64,000 nt of DNA from a virus. Below, in pieces: positions 1,432 to 54,126 of the stretch (position 1 is its first letter; each line of letters starts with the position of its first letter). The stretch is from the UHGV virus genome UHGV-0125682; one strand, given 5' to 3'. Both the position numbers and the translations under genes were made by a program. Below the pieces are notes generated by a model, which was given only the letters and a program-made list of their open reading frames with translations, was not told where the DNA came from and did no database searches.

Positions 1432-1524
1432 TCAAAGGGGCTGAAATGCCCCTTTCACTTTCCTGTAAGTCCATAAATCACACACTTTTTACACTTCCTG
1501 CTTTCTATGTAAGGGGAGTGTATT

Positions 1525-4500
1525 TTGAACAAGTCAGTTACTTCCGCGCTATCCGAAGCAGCAGACATTAACAGTGTTATTGCGCTGGTTTCTTCATTAG
1601 AGAGGCGAGAAACACGCCAGGGGCGCAGTAGTTACGTAGTCACCAGTAAAGGGGCAGAGGTAAAGACGGCTTTTAAGGTCGTTGATGCCAGCAGTCTGAT
1701 CATTTCGAACAACCTTGACGGTACGATTAATCCGGCCTTCCCGGAAGAACTCCAGCCACGTGACCGTACACGGCTATCAAGCAAACTCCAGGTTAACCGT
1801 ATTGCCTCCAATTTACGCCCGGCACAATTAACGGATTCCGGCATGAGCAGCCACGGAGCGCCGATAGTTGGTCCGGACAACGTTGTTGAATCCGGCAACG
1901 GAAGGAGCATGGGTATCTGGCGTGCCTATGAGCAAGGGCAGGCGGATGAATATCGCCAGTACCTGATCGATCATGCAAAAGAGTTTGGTCTGAATCCTGA
2001 CGACATTTCACAAATGTCTATGCCCGTATTGGTGCGAGAAAGACTCACAGATGTAGACCGCGCACAATTTGCCCGCGATTCAAACATCAGCGATCTGCAA
2101 GAGATGGCTGCAAGTGAAAAAGCGTATGCGGATGCGCAATTTCTCACTGAGAGCGTCATGGCGCTATTTAATCCTTCAGATGATGGAAATCTACTGGCGC
2201 GGTCCAATGATGCGTTTATTCGTGCGTTTTTGCGCGAAATAGGTGATACGGCGACGGCAGGTTTGCTTACTGCCGATGGGCGTCCAACGAAACAACTTAT
2301 CGACCGCATCCAGAATGCAATTTTTGCCAAAGCGTACAAGGATGAAAGGCTTGTTCGGCTGGTGGCGGAAGAGCCAGATCCGGAAATGCGTAACATTCTT
2401 ACCGCATTAAATACGGCAGCCAGCGATTTTGCGCAAATGCAGTCGCTTTCAGGTGATGTTCACCATGACACGGTAACCGGACTGGTAGACGGTATAGAGC
2501 AATTGAATGGTCTGGATAAACAGGCTATTGCCGCGCTACAGGAAGCAATTAACCTTGTTCGTGAAGCAAAAGATAACGGTCAGGCAGTAGAAGAGGTGAT
2601 CGCACAGCGTGGATTGTTTGGAGATAGCACTCCGGAAGCAGAAGCGCTTGCTCTGTTTATTGTTGCCAACAACCGAAGCGCTAAGCGAATGGGGGCAGCT
2701 TTCAAGAAACTGGCGCAAAAAATTAACGATGAACTTATTCACCAGCAACAAGCGTTAGGCGATATGTTCGGCGGCGGAGATGTCGATCTGCGTAGCATTT
2801 TATCTGCCGTTTCTGATGAAATTGAGGCTGAGTATGGCGAAGGTAAAGGGCTTAATTTCGCCATGTTTGAATCGGTTTCAGGAGAGGTCGAACCATACAT
2901 TTCAAAGCTAATTGCTGATGCGACCAGCGTGGAGGACTTGATCCGAATCGTGAAGGTGTCAGAAAAAATTAAGGAGTCCGCAAAAAAAATAAAGCGCAAT
3001 GTATTTTTGGAACTTGGTTTTTATATTCGCAATGTCACCGTTAATGAGATTAAGGAGTGGGCTAAACGTTATGGATACAGCGACGCTGTGTTAACAACGA
3101 TGTTATTGTCTTATCAACGCAGCAATTTTTATGCTAACGCACTGCGTGACGCGATTGAAAAAGGAGATGAAGCTCCTTCGCTCGCAGATGAAAGAAATAT
3201 TGATTGTGATATTGAAACGTTTTGCAACATATCAGAAGAAGGCGTGCCCGCTGAACAATTTATACGTGTTTTACATAATGCAGCAAAACATATTCCTGAT
3301 GACTTTAGTATTGATGAATTGCGCAATGGTTGTCTTGTTTGGTTAGGTAACTATTTAAAATCTCCAGCGTCTATTGCAGAGAAAACAGCTTTAAGATTTA
3401 GAAAGGAAATGAATAAAGCTGGAAGCGCAGAAGAGATGGTGTGCATAATCCAAAATACTTTGAAGTTATTCAAAAAGAGCTTGCATAATATCGACGATAT
3501 TATGGCGGCTGGTAGGAAAATAACAGCCAGTGTCGGAGTTAGCTCTGAACTAACGGCAGAGGAGATCGCTGATGCGTATATTGAGACACTTGTCAGGCTT
3601 AAGGAGATAGTGGAATTAGCAGAGCATTCCTCATATTACGGAATCAAGGAGCGTGTTGACTTTACTATAGAACAAATCAATAAAGTTAGGTCAAATAAGG
3701 AAAAACTCACTGACTACCTTGCTGATGTTTTGCACCAGAATGATCATGGGATTGGATATGATCTGAAAAAAATGCTTGTTTTTAATCTGGACATACCGGA
3801 AGACTTGCAAGCAGAACTATATGAAATAGCTTCATTAACACGTGGACAAAAAGCCTATCCTAATGCGCTTGAAAATGTAGTACATAAAAAAGTCAGAGCC
3901 GCATTTGACATGATTCTTGAATCGTCAAATGTGTCACATGACCAGTCTAAGGAATGGAGTCGTGGGATTGCTATTTCTGATGAAGCAGAGCAGTTAAGTG
4001 GTCACGATAATGAAACTTTCTCCCGTAAAGCATACAGTATTCGCGAGACGATTGAAAAAGCCTATATTATTTCAGGAGGGACTTTATCTACATTAAAAAA
4101 TATTAACCACAAGAACAATGTTCGTGCTTTTGCAAGTCGAAATGGGAATATAACAATTGATGCTAATAGTGATCACGAGCGTGTATTATGGCATGAAATA
4201 GGTCACCATATAGAACATTCAAATCCCCATCTATTGGAGAGGGCCAAAGCCTTCATTAAATCAAAAACTAACGGTAAAGTTTCTTATCATAATATTGGTA
4301 GCCGTGGCAGTGCTGAGTATTTGGTGCGAACCGACCTAAGTCATGGATATATGTCTAAAATTTATATGGAAAATACGGTAAGTTCTGTCAGCGGCAGATT
4401 TATATCAAAGCCACCTGCATTAAGCAATTGCAGGGCGACTGAGATTTTTTCTATGGCCTTGCAGATGTATGCCGATCCGGAGCAGGCGACTAACTCTGTA

Positions 4501-5462: not shown

Positions 5463-5645
5463 GGGATTTCTCCGCAGCAAAGTGGTCAACTTTTTCAATC
5501 TTAATGCGCACAATGTGCATATTCAAGTTTTATTCTTCACTTTGTTACGAGAGGGGCCAGCCAATATTTCTAGTTGAAAAGATCCATCATCAAAAATCAC
5601 ATACTGATTATGCTGCCGCAAACTGAAAACATTTCGCGGTGACTC

Positions 5646-11563: not shown

Positions 11564-11713
11564 ATTTTTCTCCCGGTCATGGGTTAATAAGTAGGCAAAC
11601 TATGGGGAGTATGTGATTTTGACGGTAGTATCGTCCCCCTGAAAATAACATTCTCCATACCCTCTCAACCGTACCGCATAGCGGAATTTTTACGGTTTAG
11701 AGGGGGAAATCCT

Positions 11714-20130: not shown

Positions 20131-20426
20131 GCAAAAAATATTATGTGAGTCTGGCGTTCGCTGACGATGCGGGGAGGACGCGGAGTATCACGTTGAGCAC
20201 ACCGGTTAAGGCTGTGACAGCGCCGTTAATCCGTGAAGCTCTCAGAGAGCTGGAATTGGGTGAAAACTCGGCACTGTTGTCGGTTAGTTGGTTAGGGAAA
20301 ATGTCAGAGAAACAATACGTGGATGGAGTTACCCCAATAACAGTAATGAGGCTACTTTCATTGCTGCAATGGGCCATCGTACCTGTATTTATCGCGTATC
20401 TTATTTATCAGGCTGCAACACAGTAA
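20112..20426 (+). CDS. hypothetical protein with C-terminal hydrophobic helix
   Basis: ORF; followed by terminator. Confidence 0.45.
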   Translation: MGVCTLSKKYYVSLAFADDAGRTRSITLSTPVKAVTAPLIREALRELELGENSALLSVSWLGKMSEKQYVDGVTPITVMRLLSLLQWAIVPVFIAYLIYQAATQ

Positions 20427-22982: not shown

Positions 22983-23059
22983 GATGGTGTAGCTCAGTAG
23001 GATAGAGCAGCAGCCTTCTAAGCTGTCGGTCGGTGGTTCGAATCCACCCACCATCGCCA
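22983..23059 (+). tRNA. tRNA-Arg (anticodon UCU)
   Basis: Manual cloverleaf fold: 7-bp acceptor GATGGTG/CACCATC, TTCGAAT T-loop, anticodon loop CTTCTAA, encoded CCA. Confidence 0.85.
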
Positions 23060-23061
23060 AT

Positions 23062-23137
23062 GCCGGTTTAGCTCAGTTGGTAGAGCGCCTGCCTTGTAAG
23101 CAGGATGTCAGCGGTTCGAGTCCGTTAACCGGCACCA
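23062..23137 (+). tRNA. tRNA-Thr (anticodon UGU)
   Basis: Manual fold: acceptor GCCGGTT/AACCGGC, anticodon loop CTTGTAA, T-arm AGCGG-TTCGAGT-CCGTT, CCA. Confidence 0.85.
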
Positions 23138-23146
23138 ACACAACAG

Positions 23147-23220
23147 GTAAGGGTATTTTGCGACGTCGGAGATCGCCGTGCTTGGCAGAGGGTTCGAATC
23201 CCTACGAAGTACCCTTACCG
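23147..23220 (+). ncRNA. tRNA-like element or tRNA pseudogene
   Basis: 10-bp terminal stem GGTAAGGGTA/TACCCTTACC enclosing AGGG-TTCGAAT-CCCT T-arm-like hairpin, but spacing is non-canonical. Confidence 0.3.
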
Positions 23221-23775
23221 TTGTGATGAAGTGCAGCTCTTTGAAGCAACCAGAAGATAAGCATCTGGCTTCACAACATAAACCGCAGGAACGACCAATA
23301 AACGGTAGTCCGTATGGAGAACACCCCGTTGAGGAAGAGGCCTGGCCGGAACCGTAACCGGCACTACAACGTTGAGAACACTGGCGTAACGGGGTCATAT
23401 CCCAATCTATGAATAAATGTTGCGTTGCAGCGTGACAACCAGTGTTCTCAACATTGTGGTGAATGCGCAGGCTGATGCGCGAAAGACATTGCAGCTATTG
23501 CGGAAAAGAGCTGTTCGGCGGGGCAATTAAACGCCCGTGAGAGTCTGAAATAACCGCAAGCCGGAGATCAGCACCGGTCGCCACAATAACGGGAGAGTAG
23601 GGAGCATGGTGCTCAAGCAGTCTTGAAAACCGTCCCATTGCGCACGCGGAACAGTTAAAACAATCCTCCTTAGTGGTTAAGTCAAACATCCCGGCGTTAA
23701 TTGTTAACTGGTTAACGTCACCTGGAGGCACCAGGCACCGCAGCTTTTTTATTCGTTAAATAATGGAGTGAGAGG

Positions 23776-24012
23776 ATGCAGAACAATCCGAACAAATGTC
23801 GAACGCTATGGGTGCGGTTATATATTTATGTCGTCCTCTGTTTGATTGTGTCACTGGTTCTGTATGTTTGGCTTTTGCCAAATATGATCTCATCTGACAG
23901 CACAATACTTGTATTGTTGGGAGTCCTTCTCGCGCTCATTTACCCGGCTTTTGCAGTAGTCTTTTTTCGTGAAAAAACCAGGAAATTGATTAATGAAAAA
24001 AACGTTGATTAG
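23776..24012 (+). CDS. small membrane protein (78 aa)
   Basis: GAGAGG RBS; two hydrophobic helices. Confidence 0.5.
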   Translation: MQNNPNKCRTLWVRLYIYVVLCLIVSLVLYVWLLPNMISSDSTILVLLGVLLALIYPAFAVVFFREKTRKLINEKNVD

Positions 24013-24820
24013 TGCAGCGATTATTTTTGGTTCTTTATGTCTGACCGGATGCGACCGGGTAGAACCAGGCAATGTAGGGATCAAAGTAAATAAGCTGGGG
24101 GATGATAAAGGTGTCGGCGAAGTAGTTGGCGTTGGTCGCTACTGGACAGGCTGGAACACAGAAGTTTATATCTTCCCGACCTTTAAGCAAATGAAGACCT
24201 ATGATGATCCGTTCAGCTTCCAAATGAGCGACGGGACAACAATTGGTTACCACATTGGTGTAGCTTACAAGGTTGATCCGGCAAAAGTCACAACTGTATT
24301 TCAGACCTACCGCAAAGGCGTGGATGACATTACCGACACCGACCTGCGCCAGAAGATTGCCGACGCACTTAACCGACTGGCCAGCAAAATGACCACCGAC
24401 AAATTTATCGACGGTGGCAAGTCTGAACTACTGGATGCAGCTCTTAAAGACATCCAGGAAGAAATGACGCCCATCGGTATTCAGGTAATGAGCCTCTCAT
24501 ATGTGGGCAAGCCGGAGTACCCGCCAACCGTTATCGACAGCATTAATGCCAAAGTCACGGCGAACCAGAAAACTCTGCAACGCGAGCAGGAAGTCAAGCA
24601 ACGCGAAGCAGAAGCCAACATGCTGCGCGCAGAAGCTGCCGGACAGGCCGATGCCATTCGCACAAAAGCCCAGGCTGAAGCTGATGCCATTCGTTTACGC
24701 GGTGAGGCTCTGCGCCAGAACCCCGGCGTTATGGAGTTGGAAGCGATCAACAAATGGAACGGAACGCGACCGCAGTATATGACCAGTAATACCGCTGTTC
24801 CGTTTGTTCCGGTGAAATAA
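23993..24820 (+). CDS. plp: SPFH/band-7 domain lipoprotein (Plp-like)
   Basis: Signal peptide with lipobox LCLTGC; coiled-coil Ala/Glu-rich C-terminus typical of SPFH proteins. Confidence 0.65.
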   Translation: MKKTLISAAIIFGSLCLTGCDRVEPGNVGIKVNKLGDDKGVGEVVGVGRYWTGWNTEVYIFPTFKQMKTYDDPFSFQMSDGTTIGYHIGVAYKVDPAKVTTVFQTYRKGVDDITDTDLRQKIADALNRLASKMTTDKFIDGGKSELLDAALKDIQEEMTPIGIQVMSLSYVGKPEYPPTVIDSINAKVTANQKTLQREQEVKQREAEANMLRAEAAGQADAIRTKAQAEADAIRLRGEALRQNPGVMELEAINKWNGTRPQYMTSNTAVPFVPVK

Positions 24821-24833
24821 CCAAATAGAGAAC

Positions 24834-24965
24834 ATGATGGAATTTTGGACGTTTGCCGACAAGAACCCTTGGTGGACATTTTTATTTCTGCTGGTGGTTG
24901 CATATGGGGTCGAGCAAGCAGCAAAAGCCTTACGCGGTCCTGGCAAAAAGCGTAAGCGGAATTAA
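24834..24965 (+). CDS. small membrane protein (43 aa), not in ORF track
   Basis: ATG ORF with one hydrophobic helix and basic tail. Confidence 0.35.
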   Translation: MMEFWTFADKNPWWTFLFLLVVAYGVEQAAKALRGPGKKRKRN

Positions 24966-24974
24966 CAGTAATCT

Positions 24975-25050
24975 GGCCCTTTAGCTCAGTGGTTAGAGCT
25001 GGCGACTCATAATCGCACGGTCACCGGTTCAAGTCCGGTAGGGGCCACCA
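24975..25050 (+). tRNA. tRNA-Met or tRNA-Ile2 (anticodon CAU)
   Basis: Manual fold: acceptor GGCCCTT/AGGGGCC, anticodon loop CTCATAA, T-arm ACCGG-TTCAAGT-CCGGT, CCA. Confidence 0.8.
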
Positions 25051-43675: not shown

Positions 43676-44368
43676 TCAGACTTTAAGCTGCCCTCCCTTC
43701 ACCTGCATTAGCGTCAGATTTCCGCAAAAAACCGCGCCCGTGTCTATGTAGTGCTGATTCCAGTATGCTTTTGGTCTTCGTACCGGTGTGTGCCCAAAGA
43801 TAAAGCGATCTGCGCCTGTGATTTCTCCACCAATGCCATCTATCGAATCACCGACGCGACTGCGCGACCAGACAACATCAAAAAGCGACACATCCTTACC
43901 GAACTGGTACTCTCCACCTGGATAGTCGGCATGGGCTATAACGATAGTTTCATGCCCGGTGTTCAGCTCAATGATATAGGGAAGACGTCTTACCAGCTCC
44001 ACCAGCGCCCTGGCTAATATTTCCCGATCAGCGTCCAGCATGAAGAACCATTGACCGCCATTCATTAGCCAGTTATTCACATTGCCTGCGGGACTTAACG
44101 CATCGATCATTAATCGCTCGTGGTTTCCCATAACCGACCGAAACCAGGGCATCTGCAATAGCTCCAGGCATTCAACATTTTCGGTGCCGCGATCGATAAG
44201 GTCGCCAACCGATATCAGTAAATCCTGCGCCGGGTCAAAATCCACACGATGGAGTTCATTCATAAGTAGGGTGTAGCAACCGTGCAAATCACCAACAACC
44301 CATATGTTTCTGTAGCCTGAACCATCAATACGGCTATATAAATTCACTTCATGCAGCGCCTGGTTCAT
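43676..44368 (-). CDS. Ser/Thr protein phosphatase (PPP family)
   Basis: Metallophosphatase motifs GDLHG, GDLIDRG, GNHE. Confidence 0.8.
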
Positions 44369-50003: not shown

Positions 50004-50315
50004 AACACTGACTGTTGCGCCCTGGCATTATCGTGGGGTATATTTCTACGGCACCTTAGAAAAACGGGTGCCGGGATTGGAACCCCGGATAATGCAAAAG
50101 GCGACACAGACGCCGAAAGCGTCTTTTTTTGTGTCATGCCATCGCACAGCCATACGTAGCGTTTAGCTCAGAGATCAATGGTAGTGCTGGCTGGGCTGCC
50201 GAAAGGCAGGCCGGTTCCCTTTTGCGCCGGTAGTTCCAACCCAGTCAGTGCTACCGCCATTGAGATTGGAACCTCACGCGGTAGCTCCTTAAATTAGCAA
50301 AAGGAGGCTGCCAAT

Positions 50316-51531: not shown

Positions 51532-51843
51532 ATGAAAAAAATAGATTTCACTTATTCTGCCGCCACACTTGAGCGGCGCTTCACCCTCATTAGAGAGTTG
51601 GAACTGTCAAAAGTCTGGTATCAAATCCTACTGGATGAAGAGTTTTCACTGATGGTTATAGCAGAAAAATTGGCTATGCCTAATGATCGGCACAAGGTCA
51701 TAGCCAGCCTCGATCTGGTGACAAACAGATACTGGGAAACAGAGGAACTACATGAGGCGGGAGTAATTCGTGACCTGATGGAGAATTCCGTTCCCCGCCG
51801 CTATCGTGCAGGGAACGGCATCTCCGTGGTTAAAGGTGTTTAA
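51532..51843 (+). CDS. hypothetical protein
   Basis: ORF. Confidence 0.45.
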   Translation: MKKIDFTYSAATLERRFTLIRELELSKVWYQILLDEEFSLMVIAEKLAMPNDRHKVIASLDLVTNRYWETEELHEAGVIRDLMENSVPRRYRAGNGISVVKGV

Positions 51844-52232
51844 AGCTCACCTGCGCGCTGTTTTTCAAGCACAGATTTAACATTTGGCGCTTTCCCTTTA
51901 AAAGAATGGAAAGTGCCACATTTTTCTGTTTTAACCTCGCGCAGAGCTTCGCCATCGGCGTTCTGCCATTGATGGGATAATGTCATATCACCGCGAGAAG
52001 GAACATCCAGCGAGTACAGCGTGTAAGTTCCCCCCATCTCCGCATACTCCTGGAACACATAGCTCATTACGTCAGATTCAGTTTTTCGGTGTGCGTTATC
52101 AACCTTATTCCCATTCAGAAATATGGCATCTGGATAGATTTTTATATCAAACCTACCGCACTTAACTTGTAAATTTCCGGCGCTCGCGATCAAAGGGAAA
52201 GACGCCAGTAAAGCAATAGCCAATCTTTTCAA
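51840..52232 (-). CDS. secreted protein (signal peptide, ASA cleavage site)
   Basis: MKRLAIALLASFPLIASA signal. Confidence 0.5.
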   Translation of the reverse strand: MKRLAIALLASFPLIASAGNLQVKCGRFDIKIYPDAIFLNGNKVDNAHRKTESDVMSYVFQEYAEMGGTYTLYSLDVPSRGDMTLSHQWQNADGEALREVKTEKCGTFHSFKGKAPNVKSVLEKQRAGEL

Positions 52233-52252: not shown

Positions 52253-52876
52253 TTATTGCCCGTATTTTTTACACCATTGCTCTGCCATTTGTTTGGCTAA
52301 AGGCCCGGCTACTGCACTGTATTCTGCTGTTTTACTTTGCACACATGAAGCAGATGTTTTTTTATTTCGCTGCTCGGTTAGTTTGCGCTCATAAGCCATC
52401 ATGCTATCGAACCCGGCAATATCACTTTGGCGAAGCATTCCCTTTTTAACCAAAAATTGCTGCCCCTCGGGCACCAGCGCAAGCATAAAAAGTGGTTGTA
52501 ATAACTCACCTAATCCTTGCTGGCGATACACTTCGAATTGCTGCCATCCCTGACTTAATCTGGAAAGAGTATCTTTGGTTGAATAACCTGTTTTTGTTAT
52601 AGCTTTGTCCGTCAGATATGCTGTATATGCAAAAACGCAAAAGTCAGTTTTACCAATAAACTGAGTTCCAACAGGCCGTAATGGAATGCCCTCTCTCTTG
52701 CAAAAGTCCATAATTGCCGCTTGTGAATGATCCCCACCAGCGTTATTCATAACCTGCTGCCCTGCCCTGAATTGTGCAGGTAACGCAGTTGCATTGGCTG
52801 TATTAACAGATACGCATCCCAACATAGCCGCGAGCGCGGTCCCTAAAACCCTTAACTTCACTACACCGTCCTTCAT
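52253..52876 (-). CDS. secreted protein or lipoprotein
   Basis: Signal peptide with MLGC lipobox-like site. Confidence 0.5.
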   Translation of the reverse strand: MKDGVVKLRVLGTALAAMLGCVSVNTANATALPAQFRAGQQVMNNAGGDHSQAAIMDFCKREGIPLRPVGTQFIGKTDFCVFAYTAYLTDKAITKTGYSTKDTLSRLSQGWQQFEVYRQQGLGELLQPLFMLALVPEGQQFLVKKGMLRQSDIAGFDSMMAYERKLTEQRNKKTSASCVQSKTAEYSAVAGPLAKQMAEQWCKKYGQ

Positions 52877-53092
52877 GTAAACAAAATGAAGTTTTATGTT
52901 ACAAAAACAATCAACTACATCAACATGATTTAGGCCAAATTTCGGTCAAAAAATAAAATCCACAAAAAGTGGTTGACACTATTTTGGAAATCACAAACTG
53001 CACATAATCCATCGCGCTAACGGCTCCCGTTGAAGGTTCTTTTGACGATTAACTTTCAGCCGAAGCGCGGTAGGGAGTCATAACGCCAAAGC

Positions 53093-53117
53093 AGGCCGCC
53101 ATGTGCGGCCTTTTTTT
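53093..53117 (+). terminator. intrinsic terminator with no upstream plus-strand CDS
   Basis: aggccgccatgtgcggcct hairpin plus T7. Confidence 0.6.
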
Positions 53118-53144
53118 GTATCCGTCATCCGTGGAGGAAGGACA

Positions 53145-53798
53145 ATGGAAAAGATCGCAATATTCAGCCTGACCACCAGCAAGCCTCAAATGCTCACTGC
53201 AATACTGAAAGACGGTGCTCTCATTATTAACGAAGTAAAACCCCTTCCCGCGTCAGCATTGGAGCAAAAGCAAAAAATTCCTCCAGCCATAGCAGCCCTG
53301 CGGAAAAGCAAATTTAAGGTACTGGTAGACGAAATTACGCCAACGATCTCCGCTGGCACCGGAGCAAGCCAGGTGACTCTCAAGACCCGTCATGCCGATG
53401 GCAGAGCAGCAATCATCGTCGGGATGGAAAGATACAGAGAGTTAAAACTCCAGAAGCTATTATCCCTGCCGCAAAATAACAAAGGTGCTTTCGAAATCCC
53501 CGACTCTATCGTTGATACCGAATACAACGGTAACGGAGAAGAAGTCTACAGGGTGAACTGGCAGGATATCAGGCCGGAGCATATTCTGATGATCCTGTGT
53601 TGCTACGCGACCGTATACCACAACGTTGCCAGTGCGGATTACGTAGAGCAGATGACCGGTACAGTCGATAAAGAGCAAAAAACAGGCATACTCGCTTCGT
53701 TCCTTTCCATTATTGGGCATGAAAAAGTTAAAGCAGGCACCTCCCAGCCAAAGTCACTGGCTGGGAAAGAAGTTGATGAAGATACCGTGATACTTTGA
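53145..53798 (+). CDS. hypothetical protein (start reassigned to MEKIAIF with GGAGGAAGG RBS)
   Basis: ORF; track start 53103 overlaps the terminator. Confidence 0.55.
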   Translation: MEKIAIFSLTTSKPQMLTAILKDGALIINEVKPLPASALEQKQKIPPAIAALRKSKFKVLVDEITPTISAGTGASQVTLKTRHADGRAAIIVGMERYRELKLQKLLSLPQNNKGAFEIPDSIVDTEYNGNGEEVYRVNWQDIRPEHILMILCCYATVYHNVASADYVEQMTGTVDKEQKTGILASFLSIIGHEKVKAGTSQPKSLAGKEVDEDTVIL

Positions 53799-54126
53799 TC
53801 ACATTAGTAGCTTTGTTAACTCCCTCAATACCAGGTAGAAGAGTAACAAAAATATTGACGCCAGTATTTGAGTGGACAATGAAGCGTTCATAAACAGATC
53901 AATTAGCATTAATAATTCGAAGATAACATCCATGTCATGCACTCCGTTTAATTTTTAATCTAATGCCAGCAAATGAAGCTGGCCCCCGCATAAAGATTAA
54001 TGAAAGTCACTTGTCACCAGTGAGGGGATTTATGAACCACATCCCCCTGAACTGGTGGCCTGTCTGTTTCTCGCATTTCACACCCTGCATACAGTTTCCC
54101 CCAGGTTATGACTGAGGGGCTTTGTT

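Follow-up and report, generated by a model that had tools for sequence, protein, structure and literature searches.

A conserved, terminator-ended leader RNA of the mat gene in D6-type phage-plasmids and its covarying complement in the major-capsid mRNA

Base-pairing RNAs of phages are a known category, and related arrangements occur in transposons, plasmids and bacterial hosts. In IS10, the cis-encoded antisense RNA-OUT blocks the ribosome-binding site (RBS) of RNA-IN. In phage P1, the C4 antisense RNA (RF01695) is processed from the transcript that it represses and controls synthesis of the antirepressor, not of a late structural gene. The cis-encoded countertranscripts of pT181, pIP501 and pAMbeta1 induce termination in the leader before an essential gene. 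Host-encoded activators of the "anti-antisense" type include DsrA, RprA and ArcZ (acting on rpoS), RNAIII (on hla) and GlmZ (on glmS), all of which depend on Hfq except RNAIII of Staphylococcus aureus. In lambdoid and Stx phages, the terminated late leader running from PR' to tR' (lambda 6S RNA, StxS) acts as a regulatory small RNA (sRNA) (PMC7547250). Here we describe the 5' leader of the mat gene, annotated as encoding a maturation control protein, in the UHGV virus genome UHGV-0125682; "the window" denotes the whole stretch of 64,000 nucleotides that was analysed. The window comes from a D6-like phage-plasmid of the P1 family (positions 52850-53200 are 96.8% identical to Escherichia phage D6), and a matching stretch is found in 121 PLSDB plasmids from Escherichia, Salmonella, Shigella and Enterobacter. 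Judging from comparative sequence analysis, the leader (approximately 53015-53117) is probably a late, structured RNA of about 100 nt that serves both as the 5' leader of mat and as an sRNA pairing with the major-capsid mRNA, likely as an activator of its translation.

Lambda 6S/StxS resembles the mat leader in that a phage late promoter yields a short RNA, which a strong intrinsic terminator ends shortly before late genes. There, the Q antiterminator bound at the promoter drives read-through and the RNA precedes a whole late operon, whereas the mat leader precedes a single gene, has no known Q-like factor, is unrelated in fold and sequence, and has a phage capsid mRNA as its partner. As predicted here for the mat leader, in IS10 a loop meets the extreme 5' end of the target, followed by the stem; the two genes in our case are, however, not linked (the D6-type genomes measured place them about 18-20 kb apart), and pairing involves a segment located 5' of the RBS beside an inhibitory stem, suggesting activation. 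In the anti-antisense systems too the upstream part of the target leader sequesters the initiation region and the sRNA pairs there, but the mat leader is a phage RNA and opening of a Shine-Dalgarno (SD) stem is not predicted. C4 belongs to the same phage family and its loops likewise pair with phage mRNA, yet it differs in locus, sequence and structure, and the C4 model has no match at 52980-53150. The plasmid countertranscripts share the combination of an intrinsic-terminator leader with a complementary RNA; they differ in that the partner of the mat leader is encoded in trans, and no conserved alternative antiterminator fold was found in the leader. A literature search found no description of this late leader or sRNA and no RNA-seq or Northern data on it, and the leader appears to be new, both in defining an RNA family and in connecting mat with capsid expression.

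The original prediction described a strong plus-strand intrinsic terminator at 53093-53117 as an orphan signal suggesting a small RNA. The hairpin and its seven T residues are indeed read at that position, and a terminator scan agrees, ranking it as the best site of the 3-kb neighbourhood. With a 7-bp stem containing 6 G-C pairs, a 5-nt loop and a core-hairpin energy of -10.9 kcal/mol it has the properties of an intrinsic terminator, and when both strands of the window are scanned for compact GC hairpins trailed by 6 or more T, it ranks among the best seven or so. This rank and its conservation upstream of mat homologues, down to 35% protein identity, indicate that the terminator is more than a chance hairpin. 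In the Enterobacter hormaechei lineage the stem carries a compensatory change, from AGGCCGC/GCGGCCT to AAGCCGC/GCGGCTT. The list of open reading frames (ORFs) contains no plus-strand coding sequence upstream, as had been stated; on that side the terminator has two minus-strand genes as its closest neighbours, at 52253-52876 (simB-like) and 51840-52232, and a 268-nt intergenic region separates the simB-like gene from the divergent mat (53145-53798). The start of the downstream gene was also correctly placed beyond the terminator, the mat ATG at 53145 lying behind its RBS. The label "orphan" has to be dropped, as the terminator sits within the mat 5' leader: only 27 nt, filled by the RBS, separate the T tract from the ATG, and the layout is identical in all lineages. 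This is the arrangement of an attenuator, with the terminator between promoter and start codon and without room for another promoter. Because the terminator lies between the start codon and the only promoter of mat, the gene would be expressed by read-through only. In one lineage (L174) the co-directional upstream gene has a separate terminator before the mat promoter, which shows that the terminator in the leader does not mark the end of a gene. The U tail and the A/U-rich spacer preceding the terminator may hint at the use of an RNA chaperone (Hfq or ProQ).

Two variants of the terminator region were observed. In the soil/rhizosphere lineage (L093-type, e.g. L048 at approximately 1460-1480) the T tract is interrupted (GCGGCCTTTCGCCTTTT), so that termination there may be less efficient and mat more often reached by read-through. 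In the metagenome contig OGPE01003191.1 (L098, 1348-1500) the 3' end of an unrelated gene replaces everything 5' of the terminator, with the junction falling within the GGCCGC...GCGGCC hairpin; the contig may have been assembled as a chimera, the alternative being recombination at a common terminator.

The predicted promoter of the leader is of the late type found in the P1 family, which combines a box near -22 with a -10 hexamer across a 4-nt gap and is seen repeatedly in front of late operons. The consensus for D6-type genomes is AAATCACAnAC-N4-YATnnT, with 8 sites in the window and the segment of D6 described below, and the box differs from the late box of phage P1, AAGTGACTT. Several of the 7 other sites are directly upstream of late genes, and the copies in D6 precede the capsid, tail-fibre R and pmgB genes. 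At places homologous to the mat and capsid promoters, LPmat and LP23 are annotated in P1 and P7. The hexamer TTGACA that had been pointed out as -35-like is present and is conserved upstream of the late box, and among the 8 late-promoter sites only those of mat and capsid have TTGAC(A/T) just upstream (TTGAC(T) in the case of capsid). As part of a sigma-70 promoter it was rejected because of the 24-nt spacing to CATAAT; there is no -10 hexamer at 16-18 nt, and a consensus scan gave no sigma-70 promoter here. A second candidate, AAGTGGTTG-ACAC-TATTTT (52967-52985), was considered as a P1-type late promoter and discarded, its box not being conserved; the real late box is AAATCACAAAC. No P1 C1 operator (ATTGCTCTAATAAATTT) was found in the window. 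From the spacing, transcription would start near 53015, making the terminated RNA about 100 nt long, and by homology with LPmat of phage P1 the promoter is presumably dependent on Lpa. Separately, a perfect P1-type late box with -10 (AAGTGACTT-TCAT-TAATCT) occurs at 54012..53994 in the gap separating mat from gene 26, on the minus strand, facing a small hydrophobic ORF (53942..53799, 47 amino acids (aa)) and directed antisense towards the 3' end of mat.

Comparative folding reveals that the segment from about 53015 to 53117 is a conserved RNA, in which a three-way junction of helices P1, P2 and P3 is followed by the terminator. A first alignment comprised the window, D6 and three plasmids (78-86% identical). 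Further mat loci were gathered from GTDB genomes, IMG/VR and metagenomes via the Mat protein and protein alignment; the 150 nt upstream of mat yielded 44 distinct sequences, associated with Mat proteins 33-100% identical to that of the window. Apart from one chimeric contig, all 44 have a common layout of promoter-like block, YUUUUGRCRAYU motif, GCGCGG or GCGCGA, terminator, RBS and start codon, and the leader core is retained upstream of mat homologues down to 35-50% identity. In the first alignment the core (53019-53117) stands out as far better conserved than either its flanks or the coding part of mat. GCGCGG (53065-53070, within P3) is invariant in all lineages tested except L068, which has GCGCGA. 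Minimum free energy folds of 16 representatives, each taken singly, show the same architecture in most cases; four deviate, including the L093-type, L122 and L068.

A covariance model built from close relatives of the window leader finds distant D6-type lineages with E-values of 1e-5 to 1e-9, with one strong match in each genome or locus that is always just 5' of mat; the 64-kb window contains a single match. Weaker matches elsewhere are terminators or noise, and one that was examined (L174) is the terminator of the upstream gene. Likewise, every genuine instance in a motif scan of IMG/VR adjoins a mat homologue, the other matches being chance occurrences in GC-rich coding DNA without a terminator. 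In the structural alignment A6, 90.5% of cells form a standard pair, compared to 32-51% when partners are slid by 1-3 columns; 17 of 31 pairs have changed on both sides (2-5 in slid controls), and the covariation score is 0.358 (at most 0.068 in slid controls). As A6 was fitted to the covariance model these counts lean towards the model, and the independent single-sequence folds serve as the check.

The stem of the original prediction, CGCGCT with AGCGCG, is not the one that comparative data support, although both strings are present (53013-53018 and 53064-53069). It crosses helices P1 and P3. Nevertheless, plasmids of the E. marmotae type (L081, L032) carry T53018A together with A53064T, a double change that is compensatory for this stem, and the stem could represent a pseudoknot or an alternative conformer.

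A three-way junction with conserved loop and junction nucleotides, followed by a terminator and a gene, is the classical layout of a riboswitch or attenuator. The leader might thus act purely in cis, as a protein- or ligand-responsive attenuator of mat (riboswitch-like or nut/put-like), the match in the capsid gene described below being a shared site for an RNA-binding factor. The invariance of GCGCGG in all lineages but L068, which goes beyond what the helices explain, would fit such a role. Searches for a known element of this kind gave the following results. No Rfam 15 family matched the leader at the gathering threshold in a 6-kb scan of the window, in 52980-53150 or in five homologous loci; the best scores over 52980-53150, Hrs13 (15.6 bits; gathering 52) and isrK (14.7 bits; gathering 50), were driven by the terminator only. 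The architecture is compatible with a riboswitch, but no ligand, known class or switching helix was identified. A boxA/nut site was rejected, as the loop shares only UUU-R-ACAAU with verified rrn boxA and the GCUC core of boxA (GCUCUU) is absent in all lineages. The same holds for the RfaH ops element (GGCGGTAGnnTG): the ops-like GCGGTAG is confined to the window's group, and GCGGTTG, GCGGACG or GCGGAAG are found elsewhere. A leader peptide was also dismissed, there being no conserved small ORF and the sole ATG lying in the variable terminator loop. The purely cis reading further meets the difficulty that the two sites are complementary rather than identical, whereas a common factor would need the same sequence, and that covariation preserves complementarity, G.U pairs included. 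We consider it quite unlikely.

A putative partner of the leader was found outside the window. About 27 kb of the D6-type genome are absent from the window, and this part was fetched from D6. Complements of the P2 loop inside the 64-kb window were not above chance. The fetched D6 segment contains one perfect 17-nt complement of 53031-53047; even with up to 3 mismatches allowed, a search of the window plus the D6 segment yields just this one site besides 53031-53047 itself, where 0.08-0.18 would be expected by chance. The complement is on the coding strand of the major capsid gene (homologue of P1 gene 23), 5 nt past the -10 hexamer of its late promoter, and the late capsid mRNA should therefore begin with CGUCAAAAGAACCUUCA. 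Plasmid NZ_CP021537.1 has a leader identical to that of the window together with the same complementary capsid leader. Capsid loci were taken from the contigs and plasmids that had supplied the mat loci. In 14 lineages the complementarity within each genome has been kept despite sequence divergence, spanning 12-18 bp (examples are given in Table 1). Compensatory changes between leader and capsid mRNA have turned UUGACG/CGUCAA into UUGGCG/CGCCAA, and all one-sided changes noted are compatible with G.U pairing while breaking DNA identity. An exact 15-mer scan of IMG/VR for the complement of the soil lineage was too unspecific.

Duplexes between cognate partners have energies of -17.5 to -27.8 kcal/mol, with z-scores of -2.4 to -6.7 relative to 1000 dinucleotide shuffles of the capsid segment; 0-3 of 1000 shuffles per lineage reach the observed energy, except in L066. 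The mean is -21.8 kcal/mol for cognate and -14.5 kcal/mol for non-cognate combinations, and the leader of phage P1 with capsid leaders of other lineages reaches just -3.7 to -8.6 kcal/mol. The 17 intermolecular pairs were also counted on a concatenated alignment (A8), in which P1 and partly L068 are out of register and so count against the helix. Here 85.3% of cells are paired, compared to 38-55% in slid controls, and the observed fraction is not reached in any of 500 shuffles. Nine pairs (2-6 in slid controls) and 26 cells (4-13) have changed on both sides, and the covariation score is 0.357 (at most 0.171). The leader thus shows one mark of a base-pairing sRNA, a conserved segment complementary to a target mRNA with covariation between the two. 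The suggestion of a small RNA is thereby strongly supported in one respect, as the covarying fold and the covarying capsid-mRNA partner argue for a discrete short RNA from a promoter near 52973-53008 to the terminator at 53117; the RNA is, however, also the leader of mat, and its promoter type and conserved stem differ from those proposed.

The 17-mer could alternatively be conserved at the DNA level, as the operator of a late-gene regulator placed in opposite orientation after two promoters, the terminator being a leaky insulator. Both copies are within about 35 bp downstream of late promoters, and these are the two promoters that alone carry the upstream TTGAC(A/T). Their positions differ, however (about +17 to +33 at mat and +1 to +17 at capsid), and the mat copy is embedded in helices with RNA covariation of their own. 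The changes that have been tolerated keep G.U pairs and break DNA identity, in the Enterobacter lineage at 3 of 17 positions. Moreover, mat and gene 23 are on the same DNA strand in D6 and on opposite strands in P1, so that the DNA orientation differs, and the transcripts are complementary in both. Because of the G.U-compatible changes and this strand difference, pairing between RNAs is favoured over a DNA operator, which we regard as very improbable.

A second site of complementarity was noted between the two leaders. GCGCGG in P3 is complementary to a conserved CCGCGC beside the anti-SD sequence in the capsid 5' untranslated region (capsid leaders L338-L394), and L068 (GCGCGAA/UUCGC) and P1 (GGCAC/GUGCC) have different yet complementary pairs at this place. 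GCGCGG/CCGCGC is thus a possible second contact between leader and capsid mRNA. The order of the sites rules out one continuous duplex spanning this contact and the 17-nt segment.

The capsid 5' leader, folded separately for 15 lineages, has a conserved structure of its own, with an outer and an inner stem. Its tail (the first 13 nt or so, complementary to the mat leader) is unpaired in 10 of the 15 folds; for the other 5, no more than 4 weak pairs with distant bases are predicted, all in the 3' part of the tail. The start codon is held in a stem in all but one of the 15 folds. Covariation is seen in the outer stem, where U-A has become C-G and G-C has become A-U, also at the second codon, and its 5' arm is overlapped by the 3' end of the complementary segment by approximately 3-4 nt. 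RNAcofold prefers the heteroduplex of leader and capsid mRNA by -13.8 kcal/mol. In this predicted heteroduplex helices P1 and P2 of the leader and the outer stem of the capsid leader dissolve, so that the GUG is free, and the terminator hairpin remains intact.

These predictions suggest the following course of events. Transcription would start at the D6-type late promoter, presumably in an Lpa-dependent manner, and most transcripts would stop 27 nt before the start codon of mat, so that expression of Mat would be low. The terminated RNA would present the 12-nt loop of P2, and segment 53031-53047 would form a duplex with the capsid mRNA at its unstructured 5' tail. The growing duplex might then invade the outer stem and free the GUG, which would amount to "anti-antisense" activation of capsid translation; with invasion of the outer stem, activation is the most likely outcome.

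Several observations weigh against this interpretation. The duplex in L066 stands out little from its controls, as 30 of 1000 shuffles reach the observed energy. In some lineages the complementary segment ends next to the start-codon stem or shares no more than about 3 nt with it, and in the predicted heteroduplex the inner stem covering the SD remains closed. The sign of regulation is read from predicted structures. The three-way junction is more elaborate than the presentation of a seed by a hairpin requires, and pairing with the capsid mRNA leaves unexplained both the near-invariance of GCGCGG and the terminator stem, as well as the constant fusion to mat.

The covarying complementarity also fits with control in the opposite direction. 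The abundant capsid mRNA, or a 5' fragment of it, might pair with the nascent mat leader, remodel the junction and alter termination at 53093-53117, so that synthesis of Mat would have to wait for a large supply of capsid mRNA. Such attenuation, controlled by an RNA in trans, would follow the logic of the pT181 and pIP501 countertranscripts. In every lineage the terminator stands between the only promoter and the RBS of mat, so that read-through is required, and the element is never found away from mat. Candidate antiterminator pairings exist, either of GCGG with CCGC of the terminator 5' arm or, in several lineages, of the 5' arm of helix P1 with the 5' flank of the terminator; they are, however, short (4-7 bp), and no conserved register was found for them across lineages. 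Cofolds of the leader or nascent leader with the capsid tail keep the terminator hairpin and give no antiterminator, and action during transcription, within about 60 nt, would be kinetically demanding. Control of mat by the capsid mRNA is, in our estimation, unlikely, and we prefer to view the leader as the RNA acting on the capsid mRNA.

A more far-reaching and distinctly tentative extension of the preferred reading is that mat leader and capsid leader constitute an RNA-RNA checkpoint of late development in P1-type phages, in which the leader licenses capsid translation and the duplex feeds back on the expression of Mat, a terminase/RuvC-like nuclease by its predicted fold. Synthesis of head protein and "maturation" of DNA would then be coupled stoichiometrically by base pairing, and the classical "maturation control" locus would in part be an RNA gene. 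P1 is among the best-studied phages, and phage-plasmids of the P1/D6 type are widespread carriers of resistance genes in Enterobacterales; to our knowledge, control of their late genes has been described only via the activator Lpa. If pairing of the mat leader with the capsid mRNA is confirmed, it would add a post-transcriptional layer to head-protein synthesis, provide a new RNA family and a defined sRNA-target pair with natural compensatory variants, and account for the placement of a strong terminator before an essential gene.

The layout of D6-type genomes is also found downstream of LPmat in P1, P7, SJ46 and Cronobacter phage JK004. In this lineage a closing helix of 9-10 bp, which reads GCCCGGUAC/GUACCGGGC in P1 and has covaried in JK004, is followed by a hairpin with the loop ..CUUUUCAAA.., a small hairpin, the terminator, GGGGG and an ATG. 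The layout is thus kept in P1 but with different motif sequences, and the covariance model of the D6 lineage did not detect the leaders of the P1 lineage. RNA homology across the two lineages is therefore architectural and not by sequence, the leaders being linked only by architecture, position and target logic. The ATG after GGGGG aligns with residue 1-2 of all Mat proteins of the D6 lineage. The records of P1 (NC_005856; L005 2716-2829) and P7 (L196) start mat 114 nt further upstream, inside the leader; in the P1 record homology to D6-lineage Mat begins at the ATG at 2830, after the terminator and the GGGGG RBS, and SJ46, JK004 and Ro157c2YLVW annotate the start within six nt of that ATG. 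The N-terminal 38 residues of the annotated P1 and P7 Mat, which are not conserved, are probably an annotation artefact, and the annotated mat start in these reference records would have to be corrected.

The mat gene is listed as essential in P1 (PMC10695390) and is not mentioned in the P1 transcriptome papers. No Pfam domain was found in Mat. The AlphaFold model (predicted local distance difference test, pLDDT, 79; predicted template modelling score, pTM, 0.70) is closest to the nuclease domains of large terminases and to RuvC, although the match is weak (Foldseek E-value approximately 1e-3, template modelling score 0.42-0.50), and the acidic residues D62, E63, D85 and D165 are invariant. 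It is plausible that a terminator placed before a gene with a nuclease-like predicted fold keeps the level of Mat low, and that this is the reason for the fusion of leader and gene.

Table 1. Features of the mat leader and its surroundings, late-promoter sites, and segments of the mat and capsid leaders predicted to pair. Positions refer to the window unless the D6 segment is named.
Feature	Position	Strand	Remarks
TTGACA, -35-like hexamer	52973-52978	+	conserved upstream of late-promoter box; 24 nt from -10
Late-promoter box AAATCACAAAC	52988-52998	+	counterpart of the "-22 region" of phage P1
-10 hexamer CATAAT	53003-53008	+	4-nt spacer after box
Three-way-junction domain	53014-53086	+	comparative folds, structural alignment A6
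Closing helix P1	53022-53028 with 53073-53079	+	imperfect extension 53014-16/53084-86 and 53018-19/53081-82
Hairpin P2	53031-53058	+	stem 53031-38/53051-58
Loop of P2, CUUUUGACGAUU	53039-53050	+	12 nt; consensus YUUUUGRCRAYU
Segment X, TGAAGGTTCTTTTGACG	53031-53047	+	5' arm of P2 and 9 loop bases; complementary to the first ~17 nt of the capsid mRNA
Small hairpin P3 (GCCG-AAGCG-CGGU)	53059-53071	+	pairs 53059-62/53068-71
Rho-independent terminator, AGGCCGC-CATGT-GCGGCCT + T7	53093-53117	+	hairpin scan, conservation
SD sequence of mat, GGAGGAAGG	53133-53141	+	
mat ("maturation control protein"), 217 aa	53145-53798	+	reached by terminator read-through only
Late-promoter sites, window	1475-1485, 5594-5604, 44286-44296, 52988-52998	+	
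Late-promoter site, window	11609-11619	-	
Late-promoter sites, D6 segment (L197)	4226-4236, 11602-11612, 20235-20245	-	
Outer stem of capsid leader			UUCACG/CGUGAA in D6, CUCGCA/UGUGAG or CUCACA/UGUGAG elsewhere; contains GUG start codon
Inner stem of capsid leader			GCCC/GGGC; covers SD-like GGG 7 nt upstream of start
Paired segments, D6 and window			mat leader UGAAGGUUCUUUUGACG, capsid CGUCAAAAGAACCUUCA; 17/17 pairs
Paired segments, Enterobacter lineage			mat leader UGAGGGUUCUUUUGACG, capsid UGUCAAAAGAACUUUCA; 17/17 pairs, 3 G.U
Paired segments, L067			mat leader GAGGUUUUUUGGCG, capsid CGCCAAAAAACCUC
Paired segments, soil lineage			mat leader GGAAUUUUUGAC, capsid GUCAAAAAUUCC
Paired segments, L068			mat leader AGCUUUUUCGACG, capsid CGUCGAAAAGCU; inserted C matched by inserted G
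Paired segments, phage P1			mat leader UGGAUCCCUUUUC, capsid GAAAAGGGAUUCA; different sequence pair, same positions

Other RNA-related features were seen in the same genomes. The window contains an immI module of the P1 type upstream of icd/ant, with an isrK-like RNA at 50051-50129 (+; 62.5 bits) and a C4 RNA at 50174-50261 (+; 76.7 bits). Genes for tRNA-Arg(tct), tRNA-Thr(tgt) and tRNA-Met(cat) lie at 22983-25050 (+), and the D6 segment encodes a homologue of glutaminyl-tRNA synthetase (L197, 26026-27301).

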